Origin: an uncultured candidatus Porisulfidus sp.
GTDB taxonomy: Bacteria; Pseudomonadota; Gammaproteobacteria; Poriferisulfidales; Oxydemutatoraceae
Assembly (NCBI GenBank): GCA_965215125.1
Contig: OZ244052.1
Coordinates: forward strand, 448,001 to 512,000
DNA length: 64,000 nt
Direction of reading: 5' to 3'
This document shows, piece by piece, positions 2,419-6,926 of the stretch; positions within the stretch are counted from its first letter, which is position 1; every line of letters starts with the position of its first letter. Below the pieces are notes generated by a model, which worked only from the letters and a program-made list of their open reading frames with translations, ran no database searches and was not told the DNA's origin. Position numbers and translations under genes: made by a program.

Positions 2419-3759
2419 TTAATCATTTTTATAAAGTAAAGTTCCCTCTCGCTGATTGTCTGCATAGTTAGCATCTGCTGGTATAGCGTTCCAAAAAACA
2501 CTTGCATCTGTATTCTCTCGGGCAATTACTAGCATATTTTTTTCACCTCTAAATAATTTAATAAACCGGCGGCGAAAACTGCCATCAGTATATTCAGTCA
2601 ACCAAATTTCACTTGGGTTAGCCAATGTAGGGAGAATGAAGTTAGCATACCTTTCTCGGGCATCCGATCGTTTTCCAGATATATATTCTAATCCTTCCTC
2701 GCTGATAATAACTGGTTCTAGCGGTGTTTGAATGTTGCGAAAGTCGTTTTTTTTACCAAGCACAACCTCTGCAATTTGAGCATGAGCTAGAGTGGCTGAC
2801 TCTGCTCTAGGCAATAGCTTAGGAGCCTCTGCAAAAGCGAAGTCTGGAAGCTTTTTCACACTAGGTAATCCGTAGCTTGAATACTTTTTTTGACCGGGCT
2901 GTATTCTGGCGATACCTTTACCTCGACTACTAACCTGATCGGGTAATGCGCCGAGCTTATCCCACAAAGCCCACCTAGCACCGGGGTTATAATCAAAGCT
3001 CACATCAGGTGCCTCTATGAAGGTTTTGCCTAGCGCATCTCTACCTCGATACCTAACAGATAGTTGGGTTAGTGCTTCGCCTGTATATTTATCAACGCCG
3101 ACTTCTTGAGTGAAGGTCTCCAGATGTCCTTCACTCGTACCAACTTTCAATCCACGAGATTTAAGTTGTCGCTCGGTTAATGTCCGCACACGACACCTGC
3201 AATTCCAGCCGTTAGGTGGGTAGAAGGTATCCCAGAACGGATCGTCAAAACGGAAGACCTTACCGTGTAGCTTGCGGTGCGCCGGGCGAGTGCGAGAGTC
3301 CATCACGGCGAGGTATTGCCAGTATTGTCCTGCACCGATGCGCTGTGTTGCCAGTTCCACTTGTTGTTTGTATCTACCCGCACTATAAGCGGTGTTTAAG
3401 TTGGTTCTAAAGATGGTTTTGAGCCTATTCACGGAACCCAGTTGCACTAGTTCAGCGGTGCCGTCGGGAGCCTCTTTTACACGCTTGCCCCACCAACCGA
3501 GCTTCTGCAGTTTCGGCTGTAGTTCTTTCTTATAAGTATGGAAAGCGATACCTTCGGAGATTGCTTTATCGGTCTCATTACGGATAGCCCGCAATACTTC
3601 CATTTTGGTAGCTTTAGCAACCGTGAATGCTTTCGCATTAGCTTCGGCTAGCGACTCGTGCCAGTCCCATGTGATGCGATAGCCTTTGCTTCTAAAGTAT
3701 TCAATAGCATCACTCGGTTGGAGCTTAACCGCAAATCCGAGATCAACTGCTTCAGGCAT
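2419..3759 (-). CDS. Mu gpF-like phage head morphogenesis protein fused to a C-terminal PBECR2-type nuclease domain (MuF polymorphic toxin)
   Basis: N-terminal AFTVAK...RLKTIFRTNL..AY.AGRY...YLAVMDSRTRPAH..LHG...DDPFW...YPPNGWNCRCRV (MuF); C-terminal RERYANFILPTL.NPSEIW...RRRFIKLF...FWN...Y...QREG.LLY resembles PBECR2. Confidence 0.85.
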   Translation of the reverse strand: MPEAVDLGFAVKLQPSDAIEYFRSKGYRITWDWHESLAEANAKAFTVAKATKMEVLRAIRNETDKAISEGIAFHTYKKELQPKLQKLGWWGKRVKEAPDGTAELVQLGSVNRLKTIFRTNLNTAYSAGRYKQQVELATQRIGAGQYWQYLAVMDSRTRPAHRKLHGKVFRFDDPFWDTFYPPNGWNCRCRVRTLTERQLKSRGLKVGTSEGHLETFTQEVGVDKYTGEALTQLSVRYRGRDALGKTFIEAPDVSFDYNPGARWALWDKLGALPDQVSSRGKGIARIQPGQKKYSSYGLPSVKKLPDFAFAEAPKLLPRAESATLAHAQIAEVVLGKKNDFRNIQTPLEPVIISEEGLEYISGKRSDARERYANFILPTLANPSEIWLTEYTDGSFRRRFIKLFRGEKNMLVIARENTDASVFWNAIPADANYADNQREGTLLYKND

Positions 3760-4251
3760 TGAGCTGCCCCCAAGTATCTGCGGCGAATATGATTCTTGTC
3801 AATAAATCATGCAAACCCTCGCCATCCATGTCTTGATACCGCTCAGCGAGCAGACCTAAAATGTAATCGGGATTCTCGTCTATGGCATCAAGCAGAGGTT
3901 GCGCTAAAGATTCAGCTATCTGTTGCTGTGTATCATTATCTATGGATGATAGTACCGCCTCCAATGCTTCTTCCACATCGGCGGTCTCGGCAAAGTCCGA
4001 TGTTTGATTACCCGTCGGCGGCGCGAACGGTATTCCAACATCGTCTACTTCAATCTTATAAGTCTCTTCGACATGCTCTTTTGTCGGACGATAACCCATC
4101 TCAAATAGCACTTTATCTCGCTCCGCCTGTTCTTTGCCTGAGCTACGCTCAAATTGGCGACGCACCTTCGGCAAGGCAGCACCGGGATAATTCCATTCAA
4201 TCAGCCAACGCACGACCGAGCGCGTAAATGAGTCGTCCAACATCTGCTCTA
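3752..4251 (-). pseudogene. 3' fragment of Mu gp29-like portal protein (DUF935), 5' part removed at a repeat
   Basis: VRWLIEWNYPGAALPKV...LFEMGYRPT..HVEETY...IIFAADTWG; overlaps the gpF start as in Mu; the ORF-track start lies inside the palindromic repeat. Confidence 0.8.
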
Positions 4252-4320
4252 GTACATTCCCCTCCACAGGAGGGGAATAACCACCCCGTCAGGCACAGCC
4301 TGCCACCCTAAGGGCGGACA
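4252..4320 (+). repeat. Palindromic repeat island A, left part, including the left half of the REP hairpin hit by IS110
   Basis: GTACATTCCCCTCC-acag-GAGGGGAATAACCACCCCGTCAGGC-aca-GCCTGCCACCC then AAGGGCGGACA. Confidence 0.85.
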
Positions 4321-4334
4321 GATATATTAAACCG

Positions 4335-4560
4335 CAGCTTATTTGATATAAGATAAACGCTTAGGTAGATGCAGTGCCTAGGAAGTCGGAGGAGACACGC
4401 TGCAGGACGGACAAGGCATTAAAGCCTGGTTGCATGAAAAGCACTCCTCCGGCGTTATGACTATAGAGCTCGAAAGGCATCTTGGGACTTTAGATCTCGT
4501 ATTTATCTGTTTGAGCGGCGTAGTCATACTTTCCTAGACTTTGCTTGCTACCTATTATTT
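4335..4560 (+). ncRNA. IS110 bridge RNA (ends approximate)
   Basis: Target loop closed by 4385-4394/4444-4453 carries GGACGGACA (4405-4413) and TTGCATG (4430-4436); donor loop closed by 4456-4464/4520-4528 carries AAGGCATC (4474-4481) and TATCTG (4504-4509). Confidence 0.88.
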
Positions 4561-4594
4561 CATTAACTCAACAACCCATATGGAGAACATTATT

Positions 4595-5581
4595 ATGGAA
4601 AACAAACAACCCGTCACAATTGGCGTTGATGTCTCTAAAGAGACTTTAGAAACAGCTCTATTATTCACCGATAATAGTTTTGCCGAGCAGCAATTCAGTA
4701 ATGATGCCAAAGGCATTAAACAACTGTTATCTTGGGCTACCGAGCATGGTGCGCAACAGTGTCGCCTCTGCGTTGAGGCAACCGGCGGTTTTGAGCTAGA
4801 CCTGTGCATGGAAAGCTATGACCAACATCCCATCACGATTGTGCCACCTGTACAGGTCGCGAGCTACCGCAAAACGCTGGGTATGCGTAATAAAACCGAT
4901 GGCGTTGATGCGCAACTCATCGCACGCTTCGCATTTGCAGTCGGTGATATTCAAGACTGGGAACAGCCTACCGAAGCAGTATTCGCCTTGAGAGATACAC
5001 TGAAATGGCGCCGGCAATTAACCAAGTCCCATACGCAGTTAAGCAACTGTGCAAAGACGCTGCGCAGTATGCAGCTCAAAAAGAAGGCAGCTGCAGAACT
5101 CGCTCACCTCCAGAAGCAAATCCATGAGTGTGACGCCTTACTTTACGAAATCATCGCTGAAGACGAACAACTCACACAGCAGTATCAATTGCTCTGCTCT
5201 ATTACTGGAATCGGAACTCAAACCGCAGCCACCCTATGTGCAGCTTTTGATGATAATACGTTTCAACACCCAAAGCAACTTGCCGCCTATATCGGCATCA
5301 CTCCGATGCGCAAGCAATCCGGCAACTACGAGGCGAAGGCGCACATCTCTAAAATTGGCGATGCACACCTGCGCACCGCACTATTTATGGCGGCACTCTC
5401 GGCTCGGGTTCATAACCCAATCGTCCGTGCGTTCGCCGACCAGTTAAGCCGGCGGCGTCCGGATTTAACCAAAAAGCAGGTTATTGTTGCTTGCGCCCAT
5501 AAACTGACGCGTATCATTTACGGAATACTCAAGCACAAGAAACCGTTTGACCCGAATTATTGTTGCGTATCTGCGTCCTAA
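4595..5581 (+). CDS. IS110-family recombinase (DEDD RuvC-like domain plus Tnp domain)
   Basis: IGVDVSK, CVEATGG, KTDGVDA, SITGIG, AAYIGITP..KQSG, ISKIGD.HLR..LFMAA, VACAHKL; start moved to ATG 4595 (GGAGA RBS). Confidence 0.95.
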   Translation: MENKQPVTIGVDVSKETLETALLFTDNSFAEQQFSNDAKGIKQLLSWATEHGAQQCRLCVEATGGFELDLCMESYDQHPITIVPPVQVASYRKTLGMRNKTDGVDAQLIARFAFAVGDIQDWEQPTEAVFALRDTLKWRRQLTKSHTQLSNCAKTLRSMQLKKKAAAELAHLQKQIHECDALLYEIIAEDEQLTQQYQLLCSITGIGTQTAATLCAAFDDNTFQHPKQLAAYIGITPMRKQSGNYEAKAHISKIGDAHLRTALFMAALSARVHNPIVRAFADQLSRRRPDLTKKQVIVACAHKLTRIIYGILKHKKPFDPNYCCVSAS

Positions 5582-5632
5582 ATTGATACTCAGAAGAGAA
5601 GATAGAAAAAGATAAAAAACGAATAAAATAAC

Positions 5633-5638
5633 TTGACT
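5633..5638 (+). promoter_or_regulatory. Outward-facing -35 box of the IS110 junction promoter (pairs with -10 TATATT at 4323-4328 in the circle)
   Basis: TTGACT + 13 nt + CA + GA gives a 17-nt spacer after circularisation. Confidence 0.8.
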
Positions 5639-5651
5639 TTGAATAAGGCAT

Positions 5652-5695
5652 CATGCAAGTCCGCCCCTACAAGGAGGGGAATAAACCGTTCCTAC
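5652..5695 (+). repeat. Repeat island A, right part
   Basis: CATGCAAGTCCGCCCCTAC followed by AAGGAGGGG..AATAAACCGTTCCTAC. Confidence 0.8.
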
Positions 5696-5744
5696 ACATG
5701 GTTTGCATAATTGGGTGACACGTGGCGTTGTATAATAGCAACAC

Positions 5745-6926
5745 ATGGAACATCATGCCTCTACACTTATTATCCCCTTTTTGATATTCACCGGTGCGGC
5801 GGTGATGGCAACTTTTGCCTTATATGCAAGGCAGGCTATGTTGGTTGCTTATATCATTCTCGGGCTATTGCTGGGACCTGCGTTATTTAAGGTGGTGGAC
5901 GGCGGCGAGGAAGCAATGCACATCGCCTCGGATATAGGCATTGTTTTATTGCTTTTCTTGCTGGGCTTGGATCTGTCTCCTATTAAATTGATAAAAGTCG
6001 TGCGTGCAATCGCAACACCTACGCTGGCGAGTTGTGTCGTGTTTTCTTTACCCGGTATCGCAATCGGTTATATACTCGGTTTTGATGCCGTGTCTATAAT
6101 GATCTTGGCTATCGCAATGATGTTCTCCAGTACTATCATCGGGATTAAGCTATTGCCTACGACGGTGTTACACCATAAACCGACCGGCGAAATTATTATC
6201 AGTATATTGTTGTTGCAGGACTTGATTGCAATTCTGATCATACTTGGTCTAGGGCTGTTCTACAGCGGCGGCAGCGATTTTCATATATCGGTACCTTTTA
6301 TCAAGCTATTGCTACTCCCGGTCATGGTCGGTCTTGCCTATCTATTGCAAAAATATCTGCTCGTCGGACTTTTGATGCGCTTCGACAAAATCAAAGAATA
6401 TGTTTTCCTATTGATGATAGGTTGGTGTTTCGGCATCGCACAACTTACCGCATGGTTAGGCTTGTCGTACGAAATCGGCGCGTTCATCGCCGGCGTGTTA
6501 ATGGCTACTCACCCGATTGCAATCTATGTGGCGGACTCCTTAAAACCGTTGCGAGACTTTTTTATGGTTATTTTCTTCTTCACGCTGGGCAGTAGCATCG
6601 CACCGGGGTCGGTCGGCCGGATATGGGTACCTGCCTTGATATTAGCGGGCGTACTACTGATATTAAAACCGTTGGTCTTCGAGTGGTTACTCAGTCGCGC
6701 CGGTGAGGAAAAAACAAGAGCAAGAGAGGTCGGGTTTAGGCTGGGACAGGGCAGCGAATTCTCACTGTTAATCATTGCACTGGCGACGCAGCTCGGCATC
6801 GCCGAAAAACCTGCAATAGACTTGATTAAAACGACTATGCTGATAACGTTTATGGTGTCGCCCTACTTGATTATCGCAAAATACCCTACTCCGGTTGCGA
6901 TAGACGATCGCTTACGCCGCGACTAG
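5745..6926 (+). CDS. Cation:proton antiporter (CPA2/Kef membrane component)
   Basis: About 12 TM segments; DIGIVLLLFLLGL, FSSTIIGIKLL, LLQD, GAFIAG, PLRDFF, LGQGSEFS. Confidence 0.9.
   Translation: MEHHASTLIIPFLIFTGAAVMATFALYARQAMLVAYIILGLLLGPALFKVVDGGEEAMHIASDIGIVLLLFLLGLDLSPIKLIKVVRAIATPTLASCVVFSLPGIAIGYILGFDAVSIMILAIAMMFSSTIIGIKLLPTTVLHHKPTGEIIISILLLQDLIAILIILGLGLFYSGGSDFHISVPFIKLLLLPVMVGLAYLLQKYLLVGLLMRFDKIKEYVFLLMIGWCFGIAQLTAWLGLSYEIGAFIAGVLMATHPIAIYVADSLKPLRDFFMVIFFFTLGSSIAPGSVGRIWVPALILAGVLLILKPLVFEWLLSRAGEEKTRAREVGFRLGQGSEFSLLIIALATQLGIAEKPAIDLIKTTMLITFMVSPYLIIAKYPTPVAIDDRLRRD

Follow-up and report, generated by a model that had tools for sequence, protein, structure and literature searches.

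An IS110-group insertion sequence with a predicted CA-core bridge RNA in a REP-like hairpin of a candidatus Porisulfidus genome

An insertion sequence within a REP-like hairpin

We analysed a stretch of 64,000 nucleotides (nt) from an uncultured candidatus Porisulfidus sp. (GenBank assembly GCA_965215125.1, contig OZ244052.1, positions 448,001 to 512,000; hereafter the window), whose genome is a single contig of 2.22 Mb on which the window occupies G000:C1:448001-512000. Window positions 4321-5653 hold a 1,333-bp insertion sequence (IS) of the IS110 group, counted with one copy of its core, that splits a hairpin resembling repetitive extragenic palindromic (REP) units and has the dinucleotide CA at both junctions: GGGCGGA-CA-GATA on the left (4312-4324) and AAGGCAT-CA-TGCAA on the right (5645-5658). 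The element has one long open reading frame (ORF) only, encoding 328 amino acids (aa), and combines a long left with a short right non-coding end (Table 1), the IS110-group pattern described in PMC11208160. An earlier note on this DNA had described an intact IS110 element with a recombinase of about 330 aa; we recovered all of its coordinates and motifs, and the full-length frame retains both Pfam domains and the catalytic residues.

The encoded protein matches PF01548, the N-terminal DEDD RuvC-like domain (E 3.7e-20), and PF02371, the C-terminal Tnp domain (E 2e-25), and reaches 216 bits, against a cut-off of 140, for NCBIfam NF033542, 'IS110 family RNA-guided transposase'. Among solved structures, it matches chain 8wt6_A of IS621 (E 2.4e-44) and ISCro4 (E 1.8e-43). 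Residues D12, E61, D102 and D105 align with D11, E60, D102 and D105 of IS621, and S242-G243 with S241-G242; all five catalytic residues of IS621, as named in PMC11208158, are kept.

Because the target is itself a repeat, comparison of copies alone cannot fix the ends of the element, but empty sites can. The flanks of the other copies in the genome, five of type A or derived from it and four of type B, give the same junctions, letter for letter, and empty and occupied sites share exactly CA and no other duplication, bearing out the boundaries and CA core that had been proposed. The reconstructed target GGGCGGA-CA-TGCAA likewise occurs uninterrupted elsewhere in the genome: the complete 22-nt unit, with 8-bp arms and a 6-nt loop, has six exact uninterrupted copies and 79 matches at up to four mismatches on both strands, palindromic sites being counted on both. 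Reading along this hairpin, the left target half (LT) makes up the 5′ arm, the core spans the border of stem and loop, and the right target half (RT) corresponds to the loop, followed by the 3′ arm. Contigs of three of four public runs (X1, X4 and X5) join position 4318 to 5652, skipping 1,333 nt with two ambiguous letters, and add little because they may derive from other REP copies. A 3-nt sub-terminal inverted repeat (ATA at 5643-5645, TAT at 4323-4325), of the kind mentioned in a figure legend of PMC11208160, is present and carries low weight because it overlaps the left donor half (LD) by one base.

Table 1 Features of the element in window coordinates (LT, RT: left and right target halves; LD: left donor half; LTG, RTG, LDG, RDG: left and right target and donor guides)
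Feature	Position	Strand	Detail or basis
LT, target positions 1-7; with C4319, 5′ arm of REP hairpin	4312-4318	+	flank common to all copies; uninterrupted REP units
Core CA, left copy	4319-4320	+	sole letters common to empty site and both junctions
Left non-coding end, encodes predicted bridge RNA	4321-4594	+	274 nt
−10 hexamer TATATT of predicted circle-junction promoter	4323-4328	+	sequence
Local 5′ hairpin, alternative to long-range basal stems	4360-4382	+	8 pairs, formed in 100% of cells (11 sequences)
Basal stems, 5′ strands (4362-4368, 4378-4384)	4362-4384	+	minimum-energy fold
Target-binding stem-loop, stem 4385-4394/4444-4453	4385-4453	+	99.1% paired; nearly invariant
LTG, 9 nt, GGACGGACA	4405-4413	+	8/9 to LT and core
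Hairpin in target-binding loop, 4414-4417/4424-4427	4414-4427	+	4 pairs, which never vary
RTG, 7 nt, TTGCATG	4430-4436	+	exact reverse complement of core and RT
Candidate handshake guide, target loop	4437-4438	+	by the rule in PMC11208158
Donor-binding stem-loop, stem 4456-4464/4520-4528	4456-4528	+	9 pairs; invariant
LDG, 8 nt, AAGGCATC	4474-4481	+	8/8 to LD and first core base
Hairpin in donor-binding loop	4483-4499	+	5 pairs; 100% paired
RDG, 6 nt, TATCTG	4504-4509	+	exact complement of core and right donor half
Candidate handshake guide, donor loop	4510-4511	+	by the same rule
Basal stems, 3′ strands (4531-4537, 4548-4554)	4531-4554	+	minimum-energy fold
Shine-Dalgarno-like GGAG	4582-4585	+	invariant across 11 left ends
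Recombinase gene, 328 aa and stop	4595-5581	+	D12, E61, D102, D105, S242-G243; profile and alignment
Right non-coding end	5582-5651	+	70 nt
−35 hexamer TTGACT of predicted junction promoter	5633-5638	+	sequence
LD, 7 nt	5645-5651	+	identical in all 33 copies with right end found
Core CA, right copy	5652-5653	+	empty/occupied comparison
RT (5654-5658, REP loop) and 3′ hairpin arm (5659-5666)	5654-5666	+	flanks; empty sites

Guide segments and fold of the predicted bridge RNA

According to the rule set out in PMC11208160, the left target and left donor guides (LTG and LDG) of a bridge RNA read like the top strand, and the right target and right donor guides (RTG and RDG) are antisense. The left end of the window element carries each guide once, in the order LTG, RTG, LDG, RDG. 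The two left guides are in sense and the two right guides in antisense, and no match lies in the wrong orientation. When the left end was shuffled 20,000 times with dinucleotides preserved, the single guide matches arose 412, 352, 94 and 1,456 times, at least two matches 63 times and at least three matches never, so that the earlier proposal of four RNA segments matching target and donor stands. The first loop was also considered as a captured copy of the REP target, an origin ruled out because RTG is antisense. Reading 4499-4509 by eye for a discontinuous 9-base RDG pairing like that of IS621 gave no convincing extension past 6 nt. In each loop, two further bases are candidate handshake guides: the first of those in the target loop, A, could pair with donor position 7 (T) and not with target position 7 (A), and the first of those in the donor loop, U, could pair with target position 7 (A) and not with donor position 7 (T). 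These bases agree with the handshake rule of the IS621 structure (PMC11208158), which is a matter of consistency and no test.

The minimum-energy fold of the left end contains two stem-loops, with the guides in internal loops and a small inner hairpin in each. Its stability exceeds that of all 200 shuffles (z −3.2), and the stem-loops, at 69 and 73 nt, are near the 65 and 68 nt of IS621 (PMC11208158). The AGGC-attaaa-GCCT hairpin that had been noted between the target guides pairs in this fold, as do both of the basal stems suggested to close the RNA, but the comparative evidence for these stems is slight, and a local 5′ hairpin is an equally good fit. The loop stems are almost invariant and therefore neither support nor oppose the fold.

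Circularization would build the promoter TTGACT-17-TATATT, as the earlier note had predicted: both hexamers are present in the element, the 17-nt spacer would consist of 15 nt of the right end and 2 nt of the left end, and hexamers and spacing are conserved, by eye, in the ends of relatives. In the integrated state, the left flank provides a promoter-like CTGCCA-17-TATATT (9/12; window 4300-4328), from which some bridge RNA might be produced, at a low level, even while the element stays in place.

Co-variation among relatives and movement in the genome

Related elements were found in three of the four other genomes of the genus and in none of 36 other relatives (40 genomes searched, E ≤ 1e-40), and a class-wide protein search returned none in 399 other scored genomes at E ≤ 1e-60 (G287 was not scored). 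Searching genome contigs for related loci gave five loci, of which three were relevant; these three belong to the same genome as G003, one of the three genomes with related elements. A metagenome scan with an 18-nt donor-loop hairpin motif yielded 21 loci, none similar beyond the motif, and 32 records of a plasmid collection matched, all below 60% identity, with the best among the matches listed at 33.8%. Full-length protein-database clusters (P0002-P0019) are 52–69% identical and the next cluster 38%; a 232-residue fragment (P0020) is 63% identical over 70% of the query, and no cluster bears an informative name. The clade of the element appears closed and small, restricted to one genus among the genomes searched.

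To compare guides with the DNA they would read, we used 35 copies with seven guide tuples (types A to F and a one-base variant of F) from four genomes of this genus. Twenty of 57 initial rows were removed as spurious matches of the left-end head within the ORF (apparent length 934-935) or matches on the wrong strand; the 37 rows kept represent the 35 loci, two loci with partial left-end duplication giving two rows each. RTG pairs 7/7 by Watson-Crick rules in 26/35 copies, fully when wobble is included in 31/35 and with one mismatch in 4/35, and all four distinct RTGs have their best cross-table score with their own sites. Types D and E have T rather than A at target position 13, with A rather than U as the RTG partner, and type F has T at positions 12 and 13, with both RTG partners A. 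The type B RTG pairs fully, with one wobble, with variants carrying C at 13 or A at 11 at four of its five sites. On the donor side, 11 copies have A and 24 have G as the second base of the left end, and the RDG partner at 4506 is U or C accordingly in 35/35. LTG changes at positions 3, 4 and 7 in types E and F; LT position 4 changes with it from C to A in both types, and position 7 from A to G in type E. Judged from these sequences, co-variation of guides and DNA is supported, clearly for RTG and RDG and partially for LTG; the donor read by LDG is invariant.

Variation is concentrated accordingly. The RNA region is identical to that of relatives at 170-191 of 200 nt (85–96%) and the ORF at 686-766 of 987 nt (70–78%); within the stem-loops, 13/30 guide columns vary compared with 17/115 other columns (one-sided Fisher p 0.0013, which overstates the case because the sequences are kin). 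In contigs of the public runs, letters other than those of the window stand at 4413, 4429, 4431 and 4433, the target-loop differences of type B; three of these (4413, 4431 and 4433) fall in guides, and 4429 directly precedes RTG on its 5′ side.

A twin at another site, G000:C1:909514, is 100% identical to the window element over 1,360 nt, which argues for recent movement. The genome also holds one copy of 1,332 nt with a 1-nt deletion and a shortened open frame, one chimeric and one internally deleted copy, and four copies of the sister type B with about 80% DNA identity to the window element. Two of the B-type copies, at G000:C1:763786-766329 (L061/L010) and 297973-300471 (L063/L065), share one nested insertion sequence (about 1.14 kb, with a 361-aa ORF on the opposite strand) that breaks their ORFs at an identical position. 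They show two internal mismatches, have unrelated flanks and lie in different REP sites; because nearly identical copies occupy two such sites, this composite with a broken recombinase gene has moved, presumably mobilized in trans by the enzyme of an intact copy. The chimeric copy (L044, G000:C1:1998228-1999588) joins a B-type left end with its four guides to an ORF with 99% protein identity to type A, which suggests that left-end modules recombine between co-resident types.

Further copies are partial or rearranged. Two loci in other genomes (L043 in G001 and L090 in G004) carry partial tandem duplications of the left end, in which the first 75 or 53 nt and CA precede a complete element and the inner joints lie at CA dinucleotides within the left end; these may reflect half-site ('half-match') recombination, as described in a 2026 preprint. 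Left-end remnants lie at G000:C1:521875-521929 (L019), 1402490-1402598 (L013) and 585650-585709 (L015). L019 has the appearance of an imprecise excision, with RT directly following LT-CA and 43 nt of left end; L013 and L015 break off at one common point of the target-loop hairpin, where a motif similar to the left donor half lies. The internally deleted copy (L051, 1428668-1429724) lost the stretch between 11-nt direct repeats corresponding to about 4413-4423 and 4711-4721 of the window, and two decayed left-end fragments, 77–78% identical (L021, G000:C1:670310-670417; and 1334511-1334592), carry other sequences at the LTG position as traces of further guide types.

The window element itself lies in an intergenic site, with remnants of a Mu-like prophage upstream and a Na+/H+ exchanger gene downstream. 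The prophage remnant, on the minus strand at 2422-4267, encodes a 446-aa protein in which a Mu F-like part is fused to a PBECR2 nuclease-type domain, and contains an ORF of 171 aa whose match to the Mu portal profile is confined to the final 67 profile positions, the portal C-terminus. The left flank at 4255-4308 is a member of a second repeat family of about 47-50 nt, with a perfect 10-nt inverted repeat (4256-4265/4269-4278) in the unit, that occurs at dozens of sites and in tandem arrays (for example G000:C1:332889-333179), often adjoining a REP unit.

Alternative readings and relation to known bridge recombinases

We conclude, with a probability of roughly 0.9, that window 4321-5653 is an autonomous IS110-group insertion sequence that encodes a bridge recombinase and its bridge RNA and sits in a REP-like hairpin. 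In the cycle that we propose, the element would excise as a circle in which the joined right and left ends create the sigma-70 promoter TTGACT-17-TATATT, and from this promoter roughly 200 nt of left end would be transcribed, giving an RNA that folds into two stem-loops. The first stem-loop's internal loop would pair with both strands of the 14-bp target (7 nt of LT, CA and 5 nt of RT) and that of the second with the joined element ends (7 nt of LD, the core CA and 4 nt of the right donor half); the DEDD/Ser recombinase (D12, E61, D102, D105 and S242) would then exchange strands at CA, leaving the element inserted without other duplication. The boundaries and core, intact enzyme, four complementarities, their co-variation in relatives and recent copying are observed in the DNA, and we infer transcription, RNA–protein binding, the circle, cleavage chemistry and programmability by analogy with IS621.

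Several observations weigh against this account. All 15 copies of types A to D have an invariant A-C mismatch at LTG position 3, giving the 8/9 match, and the F-type LTG reaches five Watson-Crick pairs and one wobble of nine at its 18 REP sites, with two mismatches and one wobble in the first eight bases, and does no better on its own sites than on non-cognate ones. LDG position 7 is matched in type A only and mismatches the unchanged donor in types B to F, and the first RDG base mismatches in types B and C and in one F copy. Independent changes are few (four RTG versions, two RDG states) because the relatives all belong to one genus. Co-variation in secondary structure is weak, with no measure of local structure above shuffles; an Rfam scan of 4200-5800 returned no family, only two chance-level hits far below gathering scores (E 6.1 and 8.4); and the contigs of four public runs contain no circle-junction joint, contigs being prone to drop rare forms.

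Some of these points would fit an IS110 element whose protein recognizes the REP hairpin, the left end then acting only as a 5′ untranslated region or a regulator of translation, with matches that arose incidentally or were left over from captured flanks. The target is indeed a structured REP hairpin, a preprint reports in the passages compared that a target stem-loop contributes to ISPpu10 targeting, the RNA stems barely vary and show weak structural co-variation, and the F-type LTG fits its own sites poorly. Yet all four matches have the orientation that the bridge-RNA rule demands, RTG being antisense, no shuffle among 20,000 reaches three of them, and guide bases change with target and donor while variation is concentrated in the guide columns; we regard recognition by protein as highly improbable. 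That the window copy is a dead or domesticated, immobile relic is very unlikely as well: the genome does contain several decayed copies, with the 1-nt deletion, the internal deletion, the two interruptions and the left-end remnants, but the window copy keeps its full 328-aa frame, catalytic residues, ends and guides intact and has its fully identical twin at another site.

A different question is whether the bridge RNA departs from the architecture of IS621, with a long-range stem (4362-4384/4531-4554) that encloses both loops and no free 5′ hairpin. This stem belongs to the minimum-energy fold, and in the comparison of 11 sequences three of its pairs change on both sides, a number of such cells reached by 2/500 shuffles. 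However, 85.6% of its cells pair, and at alignment columns 48/229 and 58/218 pairing is lost in 9 and 10 sequences out of 11, respectively, whereas the local hairpin at 4360-4382 is paired in every cell, with one pair changed on both sides in lineage E. The two-sided changes at columns 59/217 and 60/216 come from lineage E alone and also keep the local hairpin paired, and the 3′ strand of the closing stem may lie beyond the end of the RNA, so we consider the enclosing architecture possible but doubtful.

The reading of the element as a bridge-RNA system draws on its likeness to IS621 of Escherichia coli. In the passages compared (PMC11208160 and PMC11208158), IS621 shares with it the two Pfam domains, the five catalytic residues, a long left and short right end, a two-loop RNA with sense LTG and LDG and antisense RTG and RDG, a core read by each guide, an 8-nt LDG (pairing with eight bases in the IS621 structure; PMC11208158), a junction promoter, REP-type targets, a 14-bp target footprint and tolerance of a mismatch at LD position 7 (PMC11208160). 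By contrast, the proteins are only about 32.5% identical, the core is CA here and CT in IS621, RTG has 7 contiguous nt here and 4 in wild-type IS621, where it is extendable to 7, and RDG has 6 contiguous nt whereas in IS621 nine RNA bases pair discontinuously with seven DNA bases; the constant A-C mismatch at LTG position 3 and the possible closing stem are further differences. ISCro4/IS622 of Citrobacter rodentium (10.1101/2025.05.14.653916; PDB 9t56), as far as described in the passages compared, has the same family and layout but a CT core and a distantly related protein. ISPpu10 of Pseudomonas putida (10.64898/2026.03.19.712850) is likewise an IS110 element that enters REP units with the hairpin as part of the target, but in the same limited comparison it has a CT core and a stem-loop 5′ of the paired sequence, whereas LT, core and RT lie within the hairpin here. 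The IS1111 group (seekRNA-type) also pairs a DEDD/Ser recombinase with an element-encoded guide RNA, but its RNA lies in a long right end and it has long sub-terminal inverted repeats, as given in PMC11208160; the window element does not belong to that group, because its 70-nt right end has no two-loop fold and the RNA is encoded in the left end.

The CA core and long 7-nt RTG, to which the earlier note had drawn attention, are both present, but their novelty was overstated: they are parameter variants of a known mechanism. The 14-bp footprint that results from a 7-nt RTG is the one already known from IS621/IS622, longer RTGs have been reported for some orthologues (Durrant et al.) and a 7-base RTG has been engineered in IS621, all as given in the passages compared, and NCBIfam already names the family 'RNA-guided transposase'. 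The same body of passages reports reprogramming of the first core base of IS621 and use of IS622 with CT or GT cores (10.1101/2025.05.14.653916). CT is the core of IS621, IS622 and ISPpu10 in the passages compared, and the phrase 'CA core' does not occur in the papers listed by the literature search, the ortholog core tables in the supplements of PMC11208160 lying outside that search; a CA core can therefore not be claimed as unreported.

The element is an ordinary, well-supported example of the bridge-RNA mechanism of 2024 and leaves the understanding of that mechanism unchanged. A broader view, to which we give even odds, is that it represents a natural CA-core platform for bridge recombinases: one that follows the logic of IS621 with A as second core base, has a near-invariant scaffold with exchanged guides that track REP variants of the host, swaps left-end modules and mobilizes cargo copies in trans. 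Should CA truly be a requirement of the enzyme, or be accepted by it, bridge editing would gain sequence space and an orthogonal partner to CT-core systems, and the enzyme could be useful for engineering. For the family, the locus contributes an element with clear boundaries and apparent activity, from a protein lineage only about one third identical to characterized ones. With it comes a natural series in which one scaffold carries seven guide versions, with two REP families and two donor variants, and which displays guide–DNA co-variation without experiment.

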